Shown one piece after another: positions 4,030 to 35,841 of a stretch of DNA of 35,841 nt. The stretch covers positions 1-35,841 of the IMG/VR virus record IMGVR_UViG_3300045988_115891, one strand, 5' to 3'. The notes under the pieces are model-generated. The model was given only the letters and a program-made list of their open reading frames with translations. It was not told the DNA's origin and ran no database searches. Each line of letters starts with the position of its first letter. Positions within the stretch are counted from its first letter, which is position 1. The stretch comes from a virus. Position numbers and translations under genes: made by a program.

Positions 4030-4683
4030 ATGGCAACAACAAAAAAGGCAGAAGTAGTAGAGATTAAGCCTGTAGAGCTTAGAACAGTTATGTTAAAGAT
4101 AGTCGGCGACACGCCGCTGATAGTACACGCTTGGTCGGAGAAGGCAAAGCGTATGATGCTTGAAGCGCAGATGGGTCTTGCAAAGGGCAAGAAAAAGGAA
4201 GTCAAGAACCCTGTTGACGACTTTATCCAGTCGATGTACTGGCTGACCGACAAGCCCAAAGAAAGCACTGAGGAAGCTTTTATGCAGGCAATAAAGGGCG
4301 GAGCAAGGTTCGGCTTCCCTGCGACAGCGTTTAAGCAGTCGGCAATTTCAGCGGCATACAGGCTCGGATATGTTAAGGACAAGATGGGCTTAAGAGGAGC
4401 ATTCTTCATCAACGGCGATGAAAACGGTATGATTGAAATACATTCCGACACGCCGATTATGCGTGAGGATATGGTAAAAATCGGTATGGGTACAGCTGAC
4501 CTGCGTTATCGTGGCGAGTTCCGCAACTGGTGGGCTGAATTAAATATCAGCTACAATGCGAACGGCTCATTTTCGCTTGAAAACATTGTCAACATAATCA
4601 ACGCAGGAGGTTACGCTTGCGGTGTAGGTGAATGGCGTGTTGAAAAGGACGGTCAGAACGGTGCGTTTCACGTTGTAGGTTAA
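4030..4683 (+). CDS. conserved-looking phage protein of unknown function (217 aa)
   Basis: RBS AAGGAG and a non-repetitive globular sequence. I did not recognise any family. Confidence 0.6.
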   Translation: MATTKKAEVVEIKPVELRTVMLKIVGDTPLIVHAWSEKAKRMMLEAQMGLAKGKKKEVKNPVDDFIQSMYWLTDKPKESTEEAFMQAIKGGARFGFPATAFKQSAISAAYRLGYVKDKMGLRGAFFINGDENGMIEIHSDTPIMREDMVKIGMGTADLRYRGEFRNWWAELNISYNANGSFSLENIVNIINAGGYACGVGEWRVEKDGQNGAFHVVG

Positions 4684-4985
4684 TTTTTAGGTAGTCGTGG
4701 TTTGGCAGGTTAGGTGCGGCAAGGAGTGTTTGGGTGAGTTCCGTTAAGGCTCGGTTTGGCAGGTGGGGTTAGGCAAGGTGTGGCGAAGTTGGGTACGGTT
4801 TGGCAGGCATGGCAAGGCTCGTTCCGTTAAGGCTTGGCAAGGTTCGGCAGGTGGGGTCGGGTGAGGCAGGGTATGGCACGGAAAGGTTCGGCAGGTAAGG
4901 TCAGGTACGGTGAGGTCAGGTTGGGCATGGTGAGGCGGGCTCAGGTATGGCAGGCTCAGGTATGGCAGGCTTGGAAAGCCAAAAA
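4684..4985 (+). repeat. G+T-rich, C-poor degenerate repeat island (GGCAGG / GGCAAGG / AGGT motifs), non-coding
   Basis: I count 27 G vs 8 C in 4741..4800 and 28 G vs 8 C in 4861..4920, and 15 AGGT in total. GTTCCGTTAAGGCT occurs at 4738 and 4821. A 15-bp tandem GCTCAGGTATGGCAG occurs x2.3 at 4939..4971. Confidence 0.85.
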
Positions 4986-5004
4986 TCGAAAGGAGTTATT
5001 TTTT

Positions 5005-5484
5005 ATGGTCTACGAATGGAAAGATTTAGCGTCTGTGCGAAACATTAAGGCAGATGCACAGGTAGCAGGAGAAGTTTGCGAGGAACTGGAGCGAGAAGGG
5101 CGTTTAACGCCTGAAAATCTCGTTGAAGTGAGCAAAGACGAAAACGCACCGCTACATAACGAATTTGAATGGAATGATGCCACAGCGGCGAAGAAATACC
5201 GCCGTTCGCAAGCGCAGTTTATCATTCAAATGCTCGTTGTAAAATCGTCCGATGATGAGGAAGAAGAAAAGAAGCCGCCTGTAAGGGCGTTCTTCGCTAT
5301 CGACAGGGAACGCAGAAGTTATGAAAGTGTTGTGTCGATACTGGAAAGCAAGGATAAAACAGCTACTCTGCGTGAGCAGGTAGTTAAAGAACTTGCTTGC
5401 TTTTACGGCAAATATCAGGCAATTTTTGACGGCGATTTGGCGAAACTCGGCGAGGAGATACGCAATGTCATTACTCCCGATTGA
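5005..5484 (+). CDS. hypothetical protein (159 aa)
   Basis: ATG at 5005 is preceded by AAAGGAG (4989..4995). The upstream in-frame extension from 4834 is Arg/Gly/Trp low complexity read out of the repeat island. Confidence 0.65.
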   Translation: MVYEWKDLASVRNIKADAQVAGEVCEELEREGRLTPENLVEVSKDENAPLHNEFEWNDATAAKKYRRSQAQFIIQMLVVKSSDDEEEEKKPPVRAFFAIDRERRSYESVVSILESKDKTATLREQVVKELACFYGKYQAIFDGDLAKLGEEIRNVITPD

Positions 5485-5983
5485 GCAAGAGCAAGCTTTA
5501 GAAACGCTGACAATTCTTGTCGATACAAGGGAACACGAAACAGCCGAAGCAGTCCGTAGATGGTCTGCTTTTGGCAAGCCGTGGCGAAAAGAGAAGCTTG
5601 ACAGCGGAGATTATTCCGCAGAACTTCTCTTGCCGAGTGGCGAAACTTGGCGTGTGCCTTGCGTTATCGAAAGGAAAATGAATTTGTCGGAAATCTGCGG
5701 TAATTTTGGCACGAACCGAGGACGGTTTATCCGAGAATTTGAGCGGATAAAAGAAAGCGGCTTGAAATGCTATCTGCTGATAGAAAACGATAGTTGGGAA
5801 AATGCGTATGCAGGGCGATACAAGTCGCTGATGAAGCCGAAAGCCCTCATATCGAGTTTAACGGCGTGGTCGGCAAGATACAACGCTCATATCGTGTTTT
5901 GCAAAGACCGCACGACACCAAAATTGATAGCGGAGATATTGTACCGAGAAGCAAAGGAGATTTTGAAAAATGGCGATTGGTGA
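5465..5983 (+). CDS. ERCC4/Mus81-type structure-specific nuclease (putative junction resolvase)
   Basis: Motifs VDTREH, SGDY and IERK are in the order typical of ERCC4 nuclease domains. ATG at 5465 follows GAGGAG. Confidence 0.65.
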   Translation: MSLLPIEQEQALETLTILVDTREHETAEAVRRWSAFGKPWRKEKLDSGDYSAELLLPSGETWRVPCVIERKMNLSEICGNFGTNRGRFIREFERIKESGLKCYLLIENDSWENAYAGRYKSLMKPKALISSLTAWSARYNAHIVFCKDRTTPKLIAEILYREAKEILKNGDW

Positions 5984-6584: not shown

Positions 6585-7190
6585 ATGGGAACGGTATTTA
6601 AAGACCGTGTTGCAAAAGGTCTGTGCGGTTACTGCGGAAAGGAAAATGATAATCTGCCGCTAACATACTGCAAAGCTTGCGCCGAAAAGCGAAGCCAACA
6701 ATACAAGGAGCGCAAAGAATATTGCGAGCGGCATGGTTGGTGTAATGTCTGCGGAAATCCCGAAAAAATGGAAAACGGGAAAATGTGCTATCACTGTTGG
6801 GAAGTCGCTTATAACGCTCGGCAGAAACGTAAAAAGCCTATGACGGACGAGCAACGGCAGAAAGTATATCAGCGAAACACGGCAAAAAGAAGACAAAACC
6901 TTAAAAACGGTCTTTGTTGGTATTGCGGCAAACGCAAGGTTCTTGACGGCAGGAGAGAGTGCATCGACTGCTATACGAAAAGGAAACGCAGGGCGGCGCT
7001 GATTTACGCAGAAACGAAAGCCAAAAATGCGGCAATTCGGGAGGAACGGCTAAAAAACCATTTATGCACGAAATGCGGTGAACCTGCAAAGGACGGATAT
7101 AAGGTCTGTGAGCGGCATTATCAGATAAGCATACAAAATCAGAAAAGAGCTAAAGAAGCAGTAAGAAAAATGCTTGACAAATGGGATTAA
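6585..7190 (+). CDS. protein built from four tandem CxxC...CxxC zinc-ribbon modules separated by Arg/Lys-rich linkers (201 aa)
   Basis: Modules: CGYCGK..CKAC, CNVCGN..CYHC, CWYCGK..CIDC, CTKCGE..CERH. Confidence 0.65.
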   Translation: MGTVFKDRVAKGLCGYCGKENDNLPLTYCKACAEKRSQQYKERKEYCERHGWCNVCGNPEKMENGKMCYHCWEVAYNARQKRKKPMTDEQRQKVYQRNTAKRRQNLKNGLCWYCGKRKVLDGRRECIDCYTKRKRRAALIYAETKAKNAAIREERLKNHLCTKCGEPAKDGYKVCERHYQISIQNQKRAKEAVRKMLDKWD

Positions 7191-7380: not shown

Positions 7381-7947
7381 GTGATTTACGAGTACATAGC
7401 GGAAGAAATCAAAGCACGGGTTAAAATAGGCGATGTGCTTTTTATGTATGGCTTTTCGGCAAGCCCAAACAGCAAAAAGAGAATACCCTGCCCGTTGCAT
7501 AACGGCAAGGATAACAATTTTAGTTTTACGGACAAAATATATCACTGCTGGGTCTGCGGAGAACACGGTGATGTGATAAGCCTTGTTTGCAAGCTATTCG
7601 GCTTATCTTTTGCCGAAGCTTGCGTAAAGATAAATCTTGATTTCGGGCTTGGCTTGCCGTGCGGAGAGAAAATGTCGTTGCGTGATAAATACAGACTTGA
7701 CAAAAAGGCAAAAGAACGCAAGGCAATAGCTCTTGCAGAAAAAGCAGAAACCGAACGAATTAACAATGAATTTTGGGATGCCTTGCACGAGTGGAGCAGG
7801 CTTGACAGACAGTTTCGTGAACATAAACCAAAATCGCCCGATGAGCCATTACACCCGTTATTTGTAGAAGCGTTGCAGAAAATCGGCTATGCCGAATATA
7901 GACTTGACATAGCAGAAATGAGGAAAAACAAAAATGATGGACGATAA
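7381..7947 (+). CDS. CHC2 (DnaG-type) primase zinc-finger protein
   Basis: GTG start 8 nt after AAGGAGG. Motif CPLHNGKDNNFSF...YHCWVCGEHGDVISL is the CHC2 zinc-finger signature. Confidence 0.75.
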   Translation: MIYEYIAEEIKARVKIGDVLFMYGFSASPNSKKRIPCPLHNGKDNNFSFTDKIYHCWVCGEHGDVISLVCKLFGLSFAEACVKINLDFGLGLPCGEKMSLRDKYRLDKKAKERKAIALAEKAETERINNEFWDALHEWSRLDRQFREHKPKSPDEPLHPLFVEALQKIGYAEYRLDIAEMRKNKNDGR

Positions 7948-9403
7948 CCGCATACAGACTATCACCGCTCCCGAGCAGCTATTTGACACAGAGTTGCTTC
8001 TTGATGTGTTCGATGAGGGAAATCCGCCCGAAGAGCAGGCAAGAATTGTGTCTGTGATGAGCATAAAAGCAAGAATGCTCGGCGTGTACAAAGAGTTTGC
8101 GACAACGATAAAAGCGTTTCAGAAAGCGCAACAAAAGTTAGCTAACGAATATCAGCGGATAAATGCAAAGCAGAACGGCGGTATGATTTTAGACTTTGCG
8201 AGTGACGGAAAACCGCTTGCAACGATTGACAATTTTGTGCAGGTAATCGAAAACGACAGCAAGTTTGATAATCTGCGGTTTAATCTGCTGACAGAAAGCC
8301 CCGAAAAAATAATTGACGGCAAAGCGGAGCGTTGGACAGATGCGGACGATGCAGAATTACGGCGGTACATAGAAAAGAAGTATAAGTTCCACTCGGCGCA
8401 GAAAAGCGATGATGCGTTGAGGATAGTCCTCAAAGGTAGACAGTATCACCCGATAAGGCAGATGATAGACCGCTTTGAGTGGGACGGCGTAAGCAGGATA
8501 AACACATTCCTCACGAAATGGACGAAATGCGATGATAACGAGTATACACGAGAAGTATCACGTTTAATCTTTTCGGGCGGTATACATCGGCTGTATAATC
8601 CCGGCTGTAAATTTGACGATATGGCGGTTTTCATCGGCACAAGGCAGGGAGAAGGCAAGTCAACGCTGATACGGTGGTTAGCTTTAGACGATAAGTATTT
8701 TACAGAGGTTTCCGAGTTTGACGGTCAGAGGGGTATAGAAGCCCTTGAGGGAGCGTGGATTTGTGAAGTAGGTGAAATGCTTGCTATGGTAAAAGTACAG
8801 CAGCAGGAAGCGGTTAAAGCATATCTGACACGCATTAACGATAAGTACCGCAAGCCATTTGATAAGCGTGTGACAGAACACCCTCGGCAGTGTATCTTCA
8901 TCGGTACTACAAACAAAGCGCAGTTTCTCACTGACAAGACAGGCAACCGCAGATTTTACCCTGTTGTCGTACATCAATCGGGATATGACCTGTTTGAACA
9001 CGAAGAAGAAATCAAAGCAGATATAAAGCAGTGCTGGGCTGAAGCGTTGCACTTGTTCAAAGAAAACAAACTTCTGCCGTATGCCGACCGCAAACTGATT
9101 GATGTTATCCGCAAGGAACAGGCAAACGCTGTTGAAGATGATTACCGTATCGGTATGATTACCGAGTACTTGAATAGCAAGTCAGAGGTGTGTGTTTTGC
9201 AGATATGGCAACACGCTTTAAATATGGGCGAGTTTTCCAAGCCGACAAAAAAAGATAGTCAAGAAATCGGCTTGATAATGCAGAACCTTGAAAACTGGAA
9301 AAAACAGCCGTATCCGAAAACTTTCGCAGGGTTCGGCTCACAGCGTTGGTGGCGCAAAGAGGGCTGTGCGGACATAGATAGTTTTGATGATATAGACCTT
9401 TAA
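7934..9403 (+). CDS. VirE / D5-like primase-helicase (P-loop NTPase)
   Basis: Walker A GTRQGEGKST and a downstream FIGTTN...NRRFYPV pattern typical of VirE-family replication proteins. It is 489 aa and overlaps the upstream zinc-finger gene by 14 nt. Confidence 0.75.
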   Translation: MMDDNRIQTITAPEQLFDTELLLDVFDEGNPPEEQARIVSVMSIKARMLGVYKEFATTIKAFQKAQQKLANEYQRINAKQNGGMILDFASDGKPLATIDNFVQVIENDSKFDNLRFNLLTESPEKIIDGKAERWTDADDAELRRYIEKKYKFHSAQKSDDALRIVLKGRQYHPIRQMIDRFEWDGVSRINTFLTKWTKCDDNEYTREVSRLIFSGGIHRLYNPGCKFDDMAVFIGTRQGEGKSTLIRWLALDDKYFTEVSEFDGQRGIEALEGAWICEVGEMLAMVKVQQQEAVKAYLTRINDKYRKPFDKRVTEHPRQCIFIGTTNKAQFLTDKTGNRRFYPVVVHQSGYDLFEHEEEIKADIKQCWAEALHLFKENKLLPYADRKLIDVIRKEQANAVEDDYRIGMITEYLNSKSEVCVLQIWQHALNMGEFSKPTKKDSQEIGLIMQNLENWKKQPYPKTFAGFGSQRWWRKEGCADIDSFDDIDL

Positions 9404-9407
9404 CGGC

Positions 9408-9683
9408 GAAAATCACTACAAAGCACCCCGAAAATCTACTTTGTAGTGGACTTTGTAGAGGACTTAGTAGAGGTCACAAAACCGCTCTACAAAGCCATTT
9501 TCCCTTAGTTAAACTACAAACTCTACAATAAATTGAGTATTTATATAAAATAGGGAATAAAAAATAAAAATGTATTTTTATATTTTATGCAAACTTTGTA
9601 GAGTTTGTAGTGATTTTCCGAAAAACCGCATAGCAAAGCCAAAAACAAGCACTACAACGAAAAAACTACATTGTAGTTTGTAG
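9408..9683. repeat. array of CTACAAA / TTTGTAG heptamers with nested inverted repeats around a 67-bp A/T-rich core (candidate origin or operator array)
   Basis: CTACAAA-type heptamers at 9416, 9436, 9487, 9514, 9523, 9652 and 9666. TTTGTAG-type at 9440, 9452, 9464, 9595, 9604, 9670 and 9677. A perfect 12-bp IR pairs 9408..9419 with 9607..9618. Confidence 0.85.
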
Positions 9684-9700
9684 AGAAAGAAGCTGAAACA

Positions 9701-9904
9701 ATGGAACGTAAAGAATTTTTGCTGATATGTCAGAAAAATGCTATAAGCGGCGATGAGCTTGTAACGTATGACGGCGTGAAATACCGCCCGATAAGCTATG
9801 CAATACGTTTTGATAAGCTCGGCAAGGCAAAGCATACGGCAGTTTTGCACTCTGTGAAAGCCGATAGCATTTTAAACGTCAGCCTTGAAGATGTCGAGCC
9901 GTAA
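9701..9904 (+). CDS. hypothetical protein (67 aa)
   Basis: ORF-track ORF with a purine-rich RBS (AGAAAGAAG). Confidence 0.5.
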   Translation: MERKEFLLICQKNAISGDELVTYDGVKYRPISYAIRFDKLGKAKHTAVLHSVKADSILNVSLEDVEP

Positions 9905-9907
9905 ATC

Positions 9908-9936
9908 TTGACATTTTCTCGGCGAAACGGTATAAT
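9908..9936 (+). promoter_or_regulatory. sigma-A type promoter TTGACA-17-TATAAT
   Basis: TTGACA 9908..9913, 17-bp spacer, TATAAT 9931..9936. Confidence 0.75.
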
Positions 9937-9983: not shown

Positions 9984-10514
9984 TTGAAAATCACTGAAAT
10001 AAGCGTAAAGGATTTGAAGCCTTACGCTAAGAACACGAAGAAGCACGATAAAACGCAGATTGCAAACGTGGCAGAGAGTATCAAGCAGTACGGTTTTGTC
10101 CAGCCGATAGTCGTTGATAAGGATAACAGTATTGTCATCGGGCATTGCAGATATGAAGCGGCGAAGAAGCTGAAGCTTGAAACCGTTCCCTGCGTTTGCG
10201 TTGATGAACTGACAGACGAACAGATAAAGGCTCTGCGAATTGTTGACAACAAGAGTAACGAAAGCCCGTGGGATATGGAGTTTCTTGCAGACGAGCTTGC
10301 GGAAATTGATATGAACGAATTTGATTTTGATTTTGGAATTAATGCAGTTGATGAGAACGATATTCCAGATGTCGAAGAAAAAGAATTAAAGCCGTACAAG
10401 AAAGTGCATTATTTGATCACGCTTGACATAAACGAAAACGATAAAGTTATAGACTTGATAAAGCAGATTGAAAGCGTGGGGGGGGGCGTAGAAGTTGACA
10501 GTACACTCAATTAA
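9984..10514 (+). CDS. ParB-like N-terminal (ParBc/sulfiredoxin-fold) domain protein
   Basis: TTG start 5 nt after AGGAGG. The sequence ISVKDLKPYAKNTKKH...IKQYGFVQPIVVDKDNSIVIGHCRYEAA is the ParB N-domain pattern. No HTH is evident. Confidence 0.7.
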   Translation: MKITEISVKDLKPYAKNTKKHDKTQIANVAESIKQYGFVQPIVVDKDNSIVIGHCRYEAAKKLKLETVPCVCVDELTDEQIKALRIVDNKSNESPWDMEFLADELAEIDMNEFDFDFGINAVDENDIPDVEEKELKPYKKVHYLITLDINENDKVIDLIKQIESVGGGVEVDSTLN

Positions 10515-11040
10515 AACAGACAACGCAAACCTCTCTCACAAGGTGTATCTGCGCAGAAAAGCAACGAAAGGCTTAAAAGAACTTTGTGTGTTGGATTGCT
10601 TTGCAGGCGAAAATCGTATATGGGGTAACTTCGATTGCAAAAAGTATTACGGTATAGAAAAAGTTAAAGGCAAGGGTAAAAACTTAAACGCCGACAACGA
10701 AAGAGTTTTAAAAAGTTTAGATTTGTCAAAATTTAACGTGATAGATTTAGACAGCTATGGTATCCCGGTTGCAAGTTTTTTGAACATATTTGAAAATCCG
10801 ACACTGAAAAAAGGAACTGTGATTATTTACACTTGCATAGGGAACGCAATGTCAGCACTCCCGAAAGGCTTGGTAAAATCGTTTGGTCTTACAAAAATGT
10901 ATCCGAAATGCCCCTCGCTCTTTAACAAAAGAGGTCACGACTTGTTTTACGGTTTGCTTTATGAGTACGGCGTGAGAAAAGTAACTGAGTACCGTGCTGA
11001 TACCAGTTTTGAAAAAACTTACGGCTTCTTCGTTTTTTAG
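10495..11040 (+). CDS. small class-I SAM-methyltransferase-fold protein
   Basis: Motif I-like VLDCFAGEN and a TRM1-like VIDLDSYG motif. It has a TTG start and overlaps the ParB-like gene by 20 nt. Confidence 0.5.
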   Translation: MTVHSIKTDNANLSHKVYLRRKATKGLKELCVLDCFAGENRIWGNFDCKKYYGIEKVKGKGKNLNADNERVLKSLDLSKFNVIDLDSYGIPVASFLNIFENPTLKKGTVIIYTCIGNAMSALPKGLVKSFGLTKMYPKCPSLFNKRGHDLFYGLLYEYGVRKVTEYRADTSFEKTYGFFVF

Positions 11041-11050
11041 CTTAAAAGTG

Positions 11051-11079
11051 TTGACTTTTGTGCTAAATAGTGATATAAT
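11051..11079 (+). promoter_or_regulatory. sigma-A type promoter TTGACT-17-TATAAT
   Basis: TTGACT 11051..11056, 17-bp spacer, TATAAT 11074..11079. Confidence 0.7.
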
Positions 11080-11925: not shown

Positions 11926-11956
11926 AGCGGTGGGCTTATAGCCTGCCGCTTTTTTA
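11926..11956 (+). terminator. intrinsic terminator after the radical SAM gene
   Basis: 10-bp stem 11926..11935 / 11941..11950 (two G-U pairs), 5-nt loop, then TTTTT. Confidence 0.6.
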
Positions 11957-17026: not shown

Positions 17027-17482
17027 ATGGGTGTTAAAGTAACAAGTAAAGATAACACAGACGAAGTGCTTGACCGTATGGAAAAGGCTTTTGAACGTGG
17101 CTTAAAGGCTTGCGGAATGACCGCAGAAGCATATGCAAAAGACACGCTTACCGACCAAGTATACAGTGTTGACGAAAGCAAGCTTGACTATGTGCTGACA
17201 GGCAGACTGCGAAACAGCATAACTTACGCTATCGGGGGCAAGTCTGCCGCCATAAGCAGTTACAAAGCTGATAAGCCAGGCTATAAAGGCGGCTCTTATT
17301 CGGGCAATGCACCCGAGGAAGATAAGCCATACGTTGCAGTAGGTACGAACGTAAAGTATGCTATCGGCATTGAAGAAGGAACGCATCGTAAAAAAGGAGC
17401 AGTGCATTTTCTGTTGAAAGCGGCTTCCGGACATCAAGAAGAGTACGAAAAGCTGATAAAAGAAAGCATGGAAAACGCTTGA
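17027..17482 (+). CDS. hypothetical virion-module protein (HK97 gp10-like TGRLRNSI motif)
   Basis: ORF-track ORF. The motif LTGRLRNSITY is reminiscent of gp10-family proteins. Confidence 0.45.
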   Translation: MGVKVTSKDNTDEVLDRMEKAFERGLKACGMTAEAYAKDTLTDQVYSVDESKLDYVLTGRLRNSITYAIGGKSAAISSYKADKPGYKGGSYSGNAPEEDKPYVAVGTNVKYAIGIEEGTHRKKGAVHFLLKAASGHQEEYEKLIKESMENA

Positions 17483-17507
17483 CAAAAAAGAAAAAATTGT
17501 ATATAAT
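17479..17507 (+). promoter_or_regulatory. sigma-A type promoter TTGACA-17-TATAAT
   Basis: TTGACA 17479..17484, 17-bp spacer, TATAAT 17502..17507. Confidence 0.75.
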
Positions 17508-17524
17508 GAGAATCGAGGTAAGAT

Positions 17525-17659
17525 ATGCAAGAAATACCGATAAAATGTAACTGTGGAAAACTCGTTGCGAAATGGCGTGACGGTAAGTTATATGTGTGGT
17601 GTAAGTCTTGCAAACGGGAGTTTGAAATCCCGATACCAAAATTGAAAAGCAAAAGATGA
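17525..17659 (+). CDS. Com-like zinc-ribbon protein (44 aa); not in the ORF track
   Basis: Hand translation: MQEIPIKCNCGKLVAKWRDGKLYVWCKSCKREFEIPIPKLKSKR. RBS GAGGTAAG. It has its own promoter and terminator. Confidence 0.6.
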   Translation: MQEIPIKCNCGKLVAKWRDGKLYVWCKSCKREFEIPIPKLKSKR

Positions 17660-17665
17660 GCCATT

Positions 17666-17698
17666 GAGCCGTAGGAAATAACTCCTGCGGCTCTTTTT
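17666..17698 (+). terminator. intrinsic terminator after the Com-like gene
   Basis: 11-bp stem 17666..17676 / 17683..17693, 6-nt loop, then TTTTT. Confidence 0.75.
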
Positions 17699-17765
17699 AT
17701 CTTTTGTGAAAAAAATACATCAAATGGCAACGAAAAGCCACCGAAGAAAAGGAGAATGTATAAGT

Positions 17766-18332
17766 ATGGCACTTTCAAGAAGAATGCTGAAGGCAATGGG
17801 CATTGAAGAGGAAAAAATAGAACAGATTATCGAAGCACACGCCGAAACCGTTGACACGTTAAAGGAACAGCGTGATACCTTAAAGGCTGACGCAGATAAG
17901 CTGTCAGAAGTGCAGAAAGAACTTGACGAAGCGAAAAAGAGCCTTGAAGACGCAGGCAAGGACAGTTACAAAGTCAAGTATGAAGCTGTCAAAGAGGAAT
18001 TTGAAAACTACAAGTCGGACGTTGAAAACAAGGAGAAGCACACCGCAAAAGAAGCGGCTTACCGTGATATGTTAAAGGCGGCAGGAGTTTCCGAAAAGCG
18101 TATCGACAGCGTGTTAAAGGTTTCAGACGTTGACAGCGTGGAACTGGACGAAAACGGCAAAATCAAGGACAATGATAAGCTGACGGAAAGCATAAAAACA
18201 GAATGGGCGGACTTTATCACCGCCGAGGGTACAAAGGGAGCGAACGTTCCTACCCCCCCCTCGAAAAACGGAGAAAGCGACCCGAATAAAATGACTTTCG
18301 CCGAGTACAAAGAATGGCGAAAGAATAATTGA
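17766..18332 (+). CDS. scaffolding protein
   Basis: ATG at 17766 follows AAAGGAG. The protein is highly charged coiled-coil (EEKIEQIIEAHAETVDTLKEQRDTLKAD...) and lies immediately upstream of the capsid gene. Confidence 0.7.
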   Translation: MALSRRMLKAMGIEEEKIEQIIEAHAETVDTLKEQRDTLKADADKLSEVQKELDEAKKSLEDAGKDSYKVKYEAVKEEFENYKSDVENKEKHTAKEAAYRDMLKAAGVSEKRIDSVLKVSDVDSVELDENGKIKDNDKLTESIKTEWADFITAEGTKGANVPTPPSKNGESDPNKMTFAEYKEWRKNN

Positions 18333-19450: not shown

Positions 19451-19471
19451 ACGATGAAAGGACGGCGTGAT

Positions 19472-19900
19472 ATGCTGACGGAATTATGTAGAGAGTGTCG
19501 CAACTGGTTCACAACCGACAGCGACAAGCACAGCGGTGACTTTACAATTTCAGACGGCGGTATCACGCCGTTTGATTTTATACTGAGCGGGCAGTATTTC
19601 CGTATTATGGGAAGTCACTTCAATGACGGGGTTTATAAAAACGTTCCCGAAGAAGTCGCAAAACTGGCGGCTGAAACGTTTACAGGGCAGATATGGGCGA
19701 TGCGTATTCCTCCTGCGTTTATCGACCTATCGGGGAGGATTGAAGAGTATATCGCAAAAAATGAAAAAGAAATTTCTCCGTACACATCGGAAAGTTTCGG
19801 CGGCTACAGCTACACAAAAGCGGTAAACGATAAAAACGTTCCGCTGATGTGGCAAGAAGTTTTCAACAGCCAGTTGAAAGTTTGGAGGAAAATAATATGA
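19472..19900 (+). CDS. putative head-tail connector/adaptor protein
   Basis: The call rests only on its position directly after the capsid gene. The start could be 19454 or 19472. Confidence 0.4.
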   Translation: MLTELCRECRNWFTTDSDKHSGDFTISDGGITPFDFILSGQYFRIMGSHFNDGVYKNVPEEVAKLAAETFTGQIWAMRIPPAFIDLSGRIEEYIAKNEKEISPYTSESFGGYSYTKAVNDKNVPLMWQEVFNSQLKVWRKII

Positions 19901-20250
19901 GTTTACTAAGCGAAGCAATGACCGATTGCGTGTTTTTAAACAAAAGCAAGGTTTCAGACGGTGAGGGCGGTTTCGTGGTAGAATGGACAGAAGGTGCTTC
20001 TTTTAAGGCGGCGATTGTTTTTGACAATTCAATGGAAGCCCGTACTGCCGAAAAGGCAGGGGTTACAAGTCTTTATACGGTTTCTGTTCCCATTTCGGTG
20101 GCGATTGAGTACCACGATGTTTTCAAACGCCTGTCGGACGGCAAGATTTTCCGTGCCACATCTGACGGTGACGATAGCAAAACTCCTGCAAGGGCTACAT
20201 TCCAAATCGCCCAGTTCACCGCTGAGGAGTTTGTGCCGACTACAAAGTAG
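19897..20250 (+). CDS. putative head-closure / head-tail adaptor protein
   Basis: ATGA overlap with the upstream gene. RBS GGAGGAAAA. About 117 aa, with a beta-rich sequence typical of SPP1 gp16-like proteins. Confidence 0.5.
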   Translation: MSLLSEAMTDCVFLNKSKVSDGEGGFVVEWTEGASFKAAIVFDNSMEARTAEKAGVTSLYTVSVPISVAIEYHDVFKRLSDGKIFRATSDGDDSKTPARATFQIAQFTAEEFVPTTK

Positions 20251-20445
20251 GCATTTTTCGGGCATTGTAGTGGGAAATGTAGTAGACTTTGTAGAGGCGT
20301 TAAAGTGGCTCTACGACTGGCTTTAAGGGGAGTTAAACTACAAACTCTACAAAATTTTTTATATTTATATAAATAGGAGATTTTTTTATAAAAGTAAATT
20401 TTATATTTATAGAAAACAATGTAGTTTTTGTAGTTTGTAGTAGAG
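20240..20445. repeat. second, paralogous CTACAAA / TTTGTAG heptamer array with an A/T-rich core
   Basis: Heptamers at 20240, 20264, 20276, 20288, 20311, 20338, 20347, 20418, 20427 and 20434. The 22-nt AGTTAAACTACAAACTCTACAA at 20331..20352 is identical to 9507..9528. Confidence 0.85.
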
Positions 20446-20460
20446 AACGGGGGTTAGGAA

Positions 20461-20832
20461 ATGACAAAAGCGGCGGCACTGCATAGCTTTTATAGTTCGT
20501 TCGGGCTGACAGCTTATGAGGAAAACGCCGTCCCCGATGATGCAGAGTTTCCATATATTACTTACAACGTTACAACCGACAGCTTCGGGAATTATTCGAC
20601 CGCAATGACCTTCTCGTTGTGGTATCGTTCGACAAGCTGGAAAGCGATAAATGCAAAGTGCGAGGAAATCTCAGCGGCGATAGGCTTAGGAGGTCAGCTG
20701 ATAGACTGTGACGGCGGTAAGATATGGATTAAGAGAGGACAGCCGTTTGCAAACTCGACAGGTGACGCAGATGACGAACTGATAAAAAGAAAGATTATAA
20801 ACGTGAGTGCGGATTATCTCACGTTAAACTGA
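20461..20832 (+). CDS. putative tail completion/terminator protein
   Basis: Position between the head-closure gene and the major tail gene; 123 aa. Confidence 0.4.
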   Translation: MTKAAALHSFYSSFGLTAYEENAVPDDAEFPYITYNVTTDSFGNYSTAMTFSLWYRSTSWKAINAKCEEISAAIGLGGQLIDCDGGKIWIKRGQPFANSTGDADDELIKRKIINVSADYLTLN

Positions 20833-30031: not shown

Positions 30032-30241
30032 ATGAAAGCAGAAGATTTCGGCAAGAGCCGTTCCGAGTGGGAAAACCTGATTGACGAGTGGGTATTTTCT
30101 GAGCGTGACAGGCGTATTTTGAAGCTCCGCTTGCTTGACGGTCTGACTTATGAGCGGCTTGCAGAAGCGGTTGATATGTCGGTAAGGCAAGTCAAAACTA
30201 TCGTGTACCGTTGCGAAAAATTGCTGATAAAGCATATATGA
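30032..30241 (+). CDS. sigma-70 region-4-like HTH protein (69 aa), putative transcription regulator
   Basis: SERDRRILKLRLLDGLTYERLAEAVDMSVRQVKTIVYRCEKLL matches the region 4.2 HTH pattern. Confidence 0.6.
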   Translation: MKAEDFGKSRSEWENLIDEWVFSERDRRILKLRLLDGLTYERLAEAVDMSVRQVKTIVYRCEKLLIKHI

Positions 30242-33389: not shown

Positions 33390-33819
33390 GCAACGTGTAA
33401 AAGACTTTGCGGAAGTGTTTACACCTAAGCACATCGTCAAGGATATGTGCGACCTCGTCCCCGAAGAGATGTGGACGAACATTGAAACGACGTTTTTAGA
33501 GCCTGCTTGCGGCACAGGAAACTTTCTCGCCGAAATCCTTGAGCGGAAGTTTAAACTGTGCGAAGACTGGGAAGATGGTCTACGGGCTTTGAAAAGCGTT
33601 TACGGTATGGATATACAACAAGACAATTGCGAGGAAACAAAGCAGAGGTTGTTCGATATGTATATAGCAAAGTTTCCGAAATCGCCTGCTGTATCGGGAT
33701 TGATAGCAGCGCAGATACTTGAAAACAACATCGTGTGCGGTGATTTTATCAAGGATTGGATGGACGAGATAGAAAAGAAAAAAGCAAAGAAAGAAGCGGC
33801 AAAAAGGAGTAAAAAATGA
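33364..33819 (+). CDS. N6-adenine-MTase-like SAM-binding half-domain lacking the catalytic (N/D)PP(Y/F) motif
   Basis: The motifs AEVFTP (motif X), LEPACGTGNFL (motif I), VYGMDIQ and IVCGDFI are followed by a Lys-rich tail and a stop. No NPPY/DPPY motif is present here or in the next ORF. Confidence 0.55.
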   Translation: MPEKLIKSKQRVKDFAEVFTPKHIVKDMCDLVPEEMWTNIETTFLEPACGTGNFLAEILERKFKLCEDWEDGLRALKSVYGMDIQQDNCEETKQRLFDMYIAKFPKSPAVSGLIAAQILENNIVCGDFIKDWMDEIEKKKAKKEAAKRSKK

Positions 33820-34139
33820 AAGCACGGATAGCAAGGAGCAACGTGCAGAGCGTGCAGAAAGAAATGGAAAAGGTTGCCATGCAAGAAGTGCTTGCGATTT
33901 ATCGTATGTGCATTGCGATAGCGTTAAACAAAAAATACCATTTTGGCAACGGCAGACTGAAAGAAGTGTTTGACGAAACTGACGATGTGCTAAAAAGATT
34001 TGACGGTTACGCAGGCGACATCAGCAAAGCAAAAGGATATAGCGACTTAGACACAGGGCGAGAAATGCTCGTCCAAGCGTTAGAAAGTCGTGGCATCGAC
34101 ATTGAACACGTTGCAGGGATAAAAATTGTTAAATTATGA
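33816..34139 (+). CDS. hypothetical protein (107 aa)
   Basis: RBS AAAGGAG; ATGA overlap with the upstream gene. Confidence 0.5.
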   Translation: MKARIARSNVQSVQKEMEKVAMQEVLAIYRMCIAIALNKKYHFGNGRLKEVFDETDDVLKRFDGYAGDISKAKGYSDLDTGREMLVQALESRGIDIEHVAGIKIVKL

Positions 34140-35742: not shown

Positions 35743-35841
35743 TCAGATGTTGTTGCAACCGCAAGAGTTACAACCGCAGAAAGGAAAAGCTCCTGCGCTG
35801 TAAGTGTAACTCATAGGGTAACGGACAACGCCGCAGAAACG
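35743..35841 (-). CDS. 3' end of the wrapped Cys-rich membrane protein gene (same gene as 1..538)
   Basis: The frame continues from position 1 (=35787) as ...GAFPFCGCNSCGCNNI to TGA at 35745..35743. Confidence 0.75.
   Translation of the reverse strand, partial: RFCGVVRYPMSYTYSAGAFPFCGCNSCGCNNI
35787..35841. repeat. 55-bp terminal direct repeat, identical to 1..55
   Basis: Exact identity read from the sequence. Confidence 0.95.

Follow-up and report, generated by a model that had tools for sequence, protein, structure and literature searches.

The non-coding gap at positions 9404-9700 of IMG/VR record IMGVR_UViG_3300045988_115891, a viral DNA of 35,841 nt analysed over its whole length and hereafter called the window, carries a dense array of short repeated sequences (iterons) directly downstream of a gene for an initiator-helicase (rep). 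Comparisons with related phages and with characterised replicons indicate that this array is likely a replication origin of the type served by Rep1 of the Staphylococcus aureus pathogenicity islands (SaPIs) and that, as part of the same explanation, a second array at 20236-20460 is a second Rep-binding architecture maintained under selection. This second array, collinear with the first, was overlooked in the initial annotation, and the array after rep is not unique in the genome. We infer from sequence comparisons that Rep binds these sites, melts the DNA and initiates replication, and the role attributed below to the second array (copy B, the first being copy A) has the same basis.

Copy A and the genes around it are organised as follows, the origin elements having no assigned strand.

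7381-7947, + strand: pri-like gene, encoding a CHC2 (DnaG-type) zinc-ribbon protein of 188 aa (Pfam PF01807, E 2e-10; PHROG DNA primase families)
7934-9403, + strand: rep, encoding a SaPI1 Rep1-type self-loading initiator-helicase of 489 aa (VapE-like, superfamily 3 (SF3)/AAA+; Pfam VapE-like, E 6e-63)
9404-9700: oriA, origin copy A, the entire non-coding gap from the rep stop codon to orf67
9414-9448: left-edge iteron pair, a 10-bp inverted repeat CACTACAAAG - 15 nt - CTTTGTAGTG, with a counterpart at 20239-20272 in copy B (repeat I3)
9440-9470: three like-oriented iterons, TTTGTAG, TTTGTAG and TTAGTAG, at 12-bp spacing (repeat family D4)
9487-9493: lone iteron CTACAAA
9514-9529: inner left pair CTACAAA / CTACAAT at 9-bp spacing, directed at the core; the 18-mer AAACTACAAACTCTACAA is identical in copy B
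9530-9594: A/T-rich core, the proposed DNA-unwinding element, with conserved blocks that include TATTTATATAAAATAGG
9595-9610: inner right pair TTTGTAG / TTTGTAG at 9-bp spacing, in inverse orientation to the left pair and 72 bp from it
9652-9683: distal right cluster, comprising CTACAAC, the palindrome CTACATTGTAG and TTTGTAG; a similar distal cluster is present in the A copy of group-2 phages (see below)
9701-9904, + strand: orf67, a small conserved ORF (open reading frame) directly after oriA, with homologues after the array in loci L117 and L118

The iteron word is strongly enriched, a property that the initial annotation had left to be verified against a shuffled-type expectation: the hexamer CTACAA or its complement TTGTAG occurs 11 times in the 297 bp of oriA, where the rest of the genome predicts 0.13 (Poisson, 6e-18). 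When the region was simulated 20,000 times by a first-order Markov model, the mean was 0.28 and no simulation attained 11. In an unbiased scan of all 6-mers, CTACAA came out as the most clustered word of the whole window. The exact heptamers of oriA are eight in number (CTACAAA at 9416, 9487 and 9514; TTTGTAG at 9440, 9452, 9595, 9604 and 9677), and only three others are found in the genome beyond oriA and oriB. If a copy is defined by an intact CTAC/GTAG core and at most two mismatches, oriA contains 13 iterons, i.e. the eight exact ones and five variants. Of the heptamer copies or variants listed initially (at least 14), these eight are exact; the others on that list are variants with one to three mismatches, and the supposed copy at 9436 is actually the left half of a palindrome.

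The coordinates given in the initial annotation were all verified against the sequence. Both local palindromes (9436-9446 and 9666-9676) are there, the outer inverted repeat (9408-9419 and 9607-9618) is perfect over its 12 bp, and the inner one is perfect across 16 bp (9513-9528 and 9596-9611). Only about 9 of the 12 positions of the outer repeat are retained in the closest relatives, and it is therefore probably incidental beyond the iterons. The A/T-dominated core described between the inner repeats (9529-9595) reaches 86.6% A+T, and the oriA core is the second most AT-rich 60-nt window of the genome (90%). The array begins 5-13 nt past the rep stop codon. As initially stated, no credible ORF occupies the gap, the 37-aa ORF at 9570-9683 having no ATG-started counterpart in copy B or in the group-2 A copy, and no known RNA family was found in the oriA or oriB region. 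Downstream, orf67 has no Pfam or PHROG match and is followed by a perfect sigma-70 promoter (9908-9936).

A phmmer search of Rep against the PDB gave one strong structure match, 7pds_A (SaPI1 Rep1, E 3e-49), the identity to SaPI1 Rep1 being only 24-25%. An AlphaFold2 model of Rep built with 40 homologues (predicted local distance difference test, pLDDT, 82.8) returned 7PDS chains as the top PDB match in Foldseek (E 2e-27, 455-466 aligned columns, template modelling (TM) score 0.59-0.66), and this fold match extends over the full length, C-terminal domain included. The next matches were other SF3 initiator-helicases: NrS-1, SaPI5 PriRep5, poxvirus D5/E5 and the African swine fever virus primase-helicases. 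The modelled C-terminus (residues 404-475) is composed of a helix, a strand, a helix, a long helix and beta-hairpins, which fits a winged-helix domain at approximately these residues. The VirE/VapE-like protein ranked first among the candidate binders in the initial annotation is a full-length homologue of SaPI1 Rep1 and is the best candidate. It is not the primase-helicase fusion described there, as the primase-like zinc-ribbon protein is encoded separately, by the gene lying directly upstream of rep and overlapping it (7381-7947), a neighbourhood kept in all the lineages examined. Another candidate put forward at that stage, the zinc-ribbon protein encoded at 6585-7190, is an unlikely binder, no homologue of it being detected in the loci of 21 kb that surround rep in group-2 phages, which have the same iteron.

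In SaPIs, pri is located upstream of rep and the origin directly downstream of it, the C-terminal winged helix of Rep recognises penta- or hexanucleotide iterons, and the origin consists of 6-12 iterons with an AT-rich centre, its conserved feature being that no fewer than two oppositely directed iterons lie on each side (PMC9371898). SaPI Reps load themselves, probably as two hexamers flanking the AT region, and 7PDS represents DNA-bound SaPI1 Rep1 (PMC9371898). The window shares with this system a Rep that is homologous by sequence and by full-length predicted fold, a separate pri-like gene upstream, an origin directly 3' of rep, short iterons (13 here, slightly above the SaPI range of 6-12), oppositely directed pairs (9514/9523 and 9595/9604) around an AT-rich core, and lineage-specific iteron words paired with variation of the Rep C-terminal domain. 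All the sequence-level features of the SaPI origins are present at 9404-9700, which supports its reading as an origin, with Rep as the best candidate binder; the initial proposal that iterons and an AT-rich unwinding core adjoining the initiator gene mark an origin agrees with this characterised system. The differences are that the replicon is carried here by a full gut Clostridia phage with structural genes, that Pri is a short zinc-ribbon protein, that the hexa- or heptamer iterons form a longer and more elaborate array, and that the genome has a second full copy of the origin architecture. We know of no second full origin copy described for SaPIs.

The window corresponds to a circularly assembled genome of 35,786 bp, since bases 1-55 recur exactly as a terminal direct repeat at 35787-35841, and the + strand holds nearly all of its genes. 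Its gene products include terminase, portal, scaffold, major head and major tail proteins as well as an endolysin-like peptidase, and it differs in this from satellites of the SaPI and phage-inducible chromosomal island (PICI) type, which are small, helper-dependent islands without capsid, tail or lysis genes of their own. The element is a complete 35.8-kb tailed phage which shares its replicon type with SaPIs and is not a satellite. Neither an integrase nor a recognisable repressor was found among the window proteins scanned. Close cultured relatives were not found, the DNA search yielding only two weak matches and the protein search a nearest cultured Rep with an identity of about 35-40% at most. 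Rep homologues number more than 7,400 at E below 1e-20, and VapE-type proteins are frequent in Streptococcus and Staphylococcus phages according to the protein search.

The conservation of the array, also left to be checked by the initial annotation, was evaluated on 39 usable rep loci from viral contigs and from metagenome-assembled genomes of Clostridia (Oscillospiraceae, Acutalibacteraceae, Ruminococcaceae, Lachnospiraceae and others). In 33 of these 39 loci, 5-13 copies of a lineage-specific hexamer occur in both orientations directly past the rep stop codon. Neither this check of conservation nor that of enrichment refuted the initial reading. The close relatives (98-99% Rep identity) and the phages of group 2 (66-72% Rep identity) have the same CTACAA array after rep, and more distant lineages have an array in the equivalent place with another word (TTGTAAC, GTTACA or TTTACA), at least 15 different lineage-specific words being present overall. 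Inverted iteron pairs around an AT-rich core are likewise found in copy B and in other lineages. The array stays after rep while the genes downstream of it vary between lineages, and it therefore travels with rep. In Rep, a wing KQPYPKxF is restricted to the CTACAA lineages and TRRESNEITLILQ...GKIERH is present in all six TATTTACA lineages, a distribution that fits an iteron specificity residing in the C-terminal domain.

Within group 2, one of 65 iteron columns of copy A is variable against 64 of 245 other columns (Fisher p = 1.4e-6), and for copy B, in a footprint of 18 distinct sequences, the proportions are 2 of 54 and 72 of 182 (Fisher p = 7e-8). At the sequence level, these contrasts demonstrate purifying selection on the iterons of both copies.

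A separate cluster was encountered in an unrelated viral contig of 48.7 kb (L226, IMGVR_UViG_3300031952_000028), where at least six exact TGTAACCATTGTAACC 16-mers in both orientations lie within 540 bp (2041-2581), which is probably another large iteron origin of GTTACA type. The 16-mer scan with the word of locus L118 was dominated by chance matches among the matches listed.

Copy B and the two genes around it comprise the following features.

19849-20250, + strand: head-associated gene (PHROG 17977), the stop codon of which overlaps the first iteron of copy B
20236-20460: oriB, origin-like copy B, in the non-coding gap between head-associated and head-tail genes
20240-20294: left arm, CTACAAA at 20240 followed by ATTGTAG, AATGTAG and TTTGTAG at 12-bp spacing, with the same offsets as in copy A (+24, +12, +12)
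20311-20317: degenerate lone iteron CTACGAC, its +23 offset being that of the iteron at 9487 in copy A
20338-20353: inner left pair CTACAAA / CTACAAA at 9-bp spacing
20354-20417: A/T-rich core of copy B, 71% identical to the core of copy A
20418-20440: three inner right iterons, AATGTAG, TTTGTAG and TTTGTAG, separated from the left pair by 71 bp
20461-20832, + strand: head-tail gene of head closure type (PHROG 17405), directly after copy B

Copy B, which lies upstream of the gene for the major tail protein, contains seven hexamers where about 0.1 are expected (Poisson 2e-11), and no other 60-nt window of the genome is as AT-rich as its core (93%). Nine iterons are in register between the two copies with a deviation of at most 1 bp: from 9416, the successive starts of copy A are +24, +12, +12, +23, +27, +9, +72 and +9, and from 20240 those of copy B are +24, +12, +12, +23, +27, +9, +71 and +9. 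The sequence between the iterons is just 57-71% identical between A and B. Concerted evolution of the two copies was considered and is not supported by sequence identity, their identity within a genome (0.66-0.68) being similar to that of A copies between lineages (0.67), and the iteron register alone is lineage-specific in the comparison of A with B.

Copies A and B are found together in every sufficiently complete contig of both CTACAA lineages, and copy B occupies the same junction in both, despite a flanking head-tail protein that is only 53% identical. It is missing in contigs L125 and L126, the head-tail proteins of which are 92-93% and 80% identical to that of the window, the flanking genes being adjacent there, and also at the homologous junction of L118 and L119, which have other iterons and where the genes abut as well. 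No second iteron copy was found within 10 kb on either side of rep in other lineages, and L125 and L126 are absent from the loci returned by the helicase scans and the 16-mer scan. Across these contigs, the presence of copy B follows the Rep/iteron type and not the surrounding structural genes, and the alignments identify it as a duplicated origin architecture under purifying selection. The tail genes of the window from 20461 onwards are 91-95% identical to those of L125. The identity falls to 63-71% for the two genes just upstream and to only 33% for the scaffold protein (17706-18332), and the major head protein has no detectable match there. As the tail module is nearly identical and the scaffold divergent, copy B lies at a mosaic boundary, and the breakpoint (window 19454-20832 compared with L125 and L126) coincides with it.

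These elements suggest how the phage could initiate its replication. Rep, the self-loading SF3-type product of 7934-9403, would read the CTACAA(A) iterons by its C-terminal winged helix, assemble at the inverted pairs 9514-9529 and 9595-9610, melt the A/T core and then load itself, with the outer iterons (the three at 12-bp spacing and the single ones) contributing cooperative binding. Priming could be ensured by the upstream zinc-ribbon Pri-like protein, by the host primase, or by both. A Sak4-like single-strand annealing protein (SSAP; 2329-2940) and an ERCC4 nuclease (5393-5983) are encoded elsewhere in the window and could process or restart stalled forks. Since the geometry of copy B is intact, Rep may be argued to assemble there too, and copy B most likely works as a second Rep-loading site, either a second origin or a fork-stalling site that switches replication to a concatemer mode. 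The fuller proposal, in which a complete origin was duplicated into the head-tail junction with its exact iteron register and acts as a working part of the replication programme, as a firing origin or as a Rep-bound fork barrier, is advanced tentatively, and we judge it somewhat less probable than an even call.

This layout has its closest counterpart in the Bacillus phage SPP1, in which oriL and oriR have the same organisation, about 13 kb apart, with oriR interrupting the order of structural genes, and in which gp38 bound at oriR was proposed to stall the fork and trigger a recombination-dependent switch to concatemer synthesis (PMC6316719; PMC3485210). In both phages, two sites with repeats and an AT-rich unwinding element are separated by a similar distance (about 10.8 kb here), one being located at the replication genes and the other among the late structural genes (in the window, at the junction of head and tail genes), and recombination functions are phage-encoded (here the Sak4-like SSAP and the ERCC4 nuclease). 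To our knowledge, the fork-switching role of SPP1 oriR is a proposal and is not proven. The two systems differ in that SPP1 has a separate origin binder (gp38) that acts together with the loader gp39 and the DnaB-type helicase gp40, whereas the initiator is the helicase here; in that oriL is inside gene 38, whereas oriA follows rep; and in that oriR is accompanied by moron genes, whereas copy B is a bare insert of 225 bp. The only strong matches of Rep are SF3 initiator-helicases, and the likeness with SPP1 is therefore one of layout and not of ancestry. Another comparable system is that of the Sfi21-type phages of Streptococcus thermophilus, for which Foley and colleagues reportedly described, in 1998, a non-coding origin downstream of a VirE/VapE-like "primase" gene. 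As in the window, a tailed phage with a Gram-positive host has, right behind a gene of the VapE family, a patterned non-coding region of direct and inverted repeats. The identity to any cultured phage protein is nevertheless below 35%, and we know of no second origin copy in that system. We regard copy A as very probably a new representative of an established type of origin, in a complete gut Clostridia phage, and the duplication of a whole origin into the structural module, in exact register, would be an unusual variant, the only precedent for its layout being SPP1 with an unrelated initiator.

Several observations weigh against this interpretation of the two arrays. No TOPRIM or catalytic primase domain was detected in the 188-aa Pri-like protein by the Pfam and PHROG scans. 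The link between C-terminal residues of Rep and the iteron word is confounded by phylogeny, i.e. by shared ancestry. In a 98%-identical relative (L096, IMGVR_UViG_3300045988_100371), an inserted gene of 209 aa (4371-5000) separates the first iteron from the rep stop codon, so strict adjacency of rep and array is not obligatory; this insertion marks the left edge of the element. The absence of copy B from the other Rep lineages, within 10 kb on either side of rep, implies that it is dispensable for the replication system generally, and it could have a regulatory role. A purine patch and a conserved TATAAA/T box, the latter 16 nt past a TCTACA inside the inner iteron, are present in both cores, which may have a transcriptional role. 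The cumulative GC skew rises monotonically through the oriA and oriB sites without inflection, a nominal objection only, since it is apparently dominated by the coding strand and is uninformative rather than contrary.

The first alternative concerns copy B only: copy A would be the sole origin and copy B a non-initiating locus controlling copy number or timing, by titration of Rep or by handcuffing and looping. Its iterons are identical in type and conserved under selection, and A and B always occur together in the CTACAA lineages. Known replicons also provide precedents. Plasmid P1 has a second iteron array (incA), and the alpha protein of satellite phage P4, a primase-helicase, requires a second iteron site (crr) in cis. 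P4 resembles the present phage in that alpha is both initiator and helicase, in that short iterons in both orientations stand beside an AT-rich stretch, and in that a second iteron-bearing site several kb away is bound by the same protein; it differs in that alpha fuses primase, helicase and origin-binding domains and in that crr, made of two 120-bp direct repeats, is no replica of ori. A pure titration site would not need the geometry of an origin, and the full geometry retained by copy B, with inverted inner pairs 71 bp apart around the most AT-rich core of the genome, therefore counts against this explanation, as does the fact that other Rep lineages manage without a second site. We consider it unlikely, while still giving it some weight.

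Both arrays could otherwise be regulated promoters of a weak sigma-70 type (TCTACA-N16-TATAA[AT]) with the -35 element within an iteron, the iteron binder activating or repressing the genes that follow, namely orf67 for copy A and the head-tail and tail genes for copy B. The motif TCTACA-N16-TATAAA/T indeed occurs in both window copies and in group-2 B, and as ACTACA-N16-TATAAA in group-2 A, and a gene starts just downstream of each array. Moreover, some late promoters must be non-canonical, since the stretch from the terminator at 11926-11950 to the late genes is devoid of consensus promoters. Against this, the promoter scanner found a match of only 9/12 in copy A (TCTACA-18-TAAAAT) and none in copy B, whereas the evident promoters of the phage are perfect 12/12 sites, one of them at 9908 after orf67. 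In L117-L119 the repeat and TATAA are separated by a variable 6 to 13 nt, the same tail genes are evidently expressed in relatives that have no copy B, the terminase/portal block is not preceded by a third array, and the layout fits a characterised type of origin adjoining its initiator gene. Taken as a whole, this promoter reading is distinctly unlikely.

The insertion of copy B as a selfish or accidental sequence with no phage function, either a recombination scar or an element similar to a miniature inverted-repeat transposable element (MITE) with terminal inverted repeats, is very unlikely. It would account for the filled-site and empty-site pattern, the flanking genes being adjacent in L125 (92-93%) and L126 (80%), for the position of copy B at a mosaic junction (tail genes 91-95%, scaffold 33% compared with L125), and for an AT-rich centre between inverted repeats. 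No target-site duplication is visible, however, and the 16-mer signature in viral contigs is confined to positions A and B of these phages, apart from isolated, unclustered chance matches. The element is made of the iterons of the phage's own Rep, with a register equal to that of copy A; these iterons are near-invariant in the 18 distinct group-2 B sequences while the spacers vary, and the same site is occupied in two lineages whose flanking protein is just 53% identical.

A centromere-like (parS) function of the arrays in a plasmid prophage, with the ParB_N protein encoded at 9984-10514 or a small ribbon-helix-helix (RHH) protein as binder, is hardly credible. In its favour, the ParB_N gene is found some 300 bp downstream of copy A, with synteny kept in all lineages, no integrase was detected among the proteins scanned, and heptad arrays are bound by RHH proteins such as pSM19035 omega and R1 ParR. 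Against it, ParB_N is the N-terminus of an apparent DNA methyltransferase in L099 and L117 and precedes a separate one in L119, the N-terminal domain of the window shows 62-66% identity both to that of L099, which has the same iteron, and to that of L117, which has a different one, and therefore does not track the iteron word, no ParA partner was detected among the proteins scanned, and the array follows rep even where the downstream genes differ. On the same two grounds, its place as the N-terminal domain of an apparent methyltransferase in relatives and its failure to track the iteron word, the ParB_N protein was rejected as a binder.

In L099 (11866-13170, 434 aa) and L117 (12290-13510, 406 aa), ParB_N is fused to a long C-terminal region that resembles a DNA methyltransferase. 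The corresponding region of the window (9984-11040) is split into a ParB_N protein of 176 aa and a protein of 181 aa without family match.

The interpretation of copy A as a SaPI Rep1-type origin and of copy B as a second Rep-binding architecture would provide gut Clostridia phages of a large, uncultured group with a concrete, testable origin and an initiator, and would turn the pri/rep/ori replicon of SaPIs from a satellite speciality into a general phage module. The lineage-specific words, together with small changes in the C-terminus of Rep, constitute a natural data set on how a winged helix reads DNA. The duplicated origin and the matched relatives without copy B offer a system for studying the role of a second initiator-binding site in a phage genome; if the proposed working role of copy B is true, the dual-site design would be a convergent solution of two unrelated initiator systems, and the related phages with the same tail genes and no such site would provide a natural comparison. 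The 300-bp fragment and pri-rep could also seed replicons or phage-resistance tools based on origin titration for gut Firmicutes that are difficult to manipulate.

Other features of the window were noted beside the two arrays. Its sigma-70 promoters form a set that is unusually uniform for a phage, with five 12/12 consensus sites (1261, 7174, 9908, 17479 and 30323) and an 11/12 site with TG at 11051, several of them having extended flanks in common (GCTTGACAAA...TTATAAT; repeat families D2, D6 and D15). The perfect promoter TTGACA-17-TATAAT at 17479-17507 is followed about 160 nt further by a strong terminator-like hairpin (17666-17693, 11 pairs and a T-run) that ends just ahead of the start of the scaffold gene at 17706; promoter and hairpin (17479-17693) could form a regulated leader or a small RNA. 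G-rich repeats with spacings of 10, 34, 44 and 54 nt (GGTTYGGCAGGT...), also seen as a CCTGCC cluster, extend over 4699-4925 and cover the gap after the ORF 4030-4683 and the beginning of the ORF 4834-5484. The small proteins encoded at 30032-30241 and 33816-34139 have weak matches to sigma-factor region 4 and HTH_16-like families (E 5e-5 to 4e-3) and are possible transcription regulators. Finally, a type-P5 twister ribozyme (RF02684) is located on the + strand at 1608-1670, as a full-model match above the Rfam gathering threshold (48.1 bits for a cutoff of 37.6, E 3.6e-7), between the ORFs 1347-1598 and 1699-2151 and downstream of the perfect promoter at 1261.

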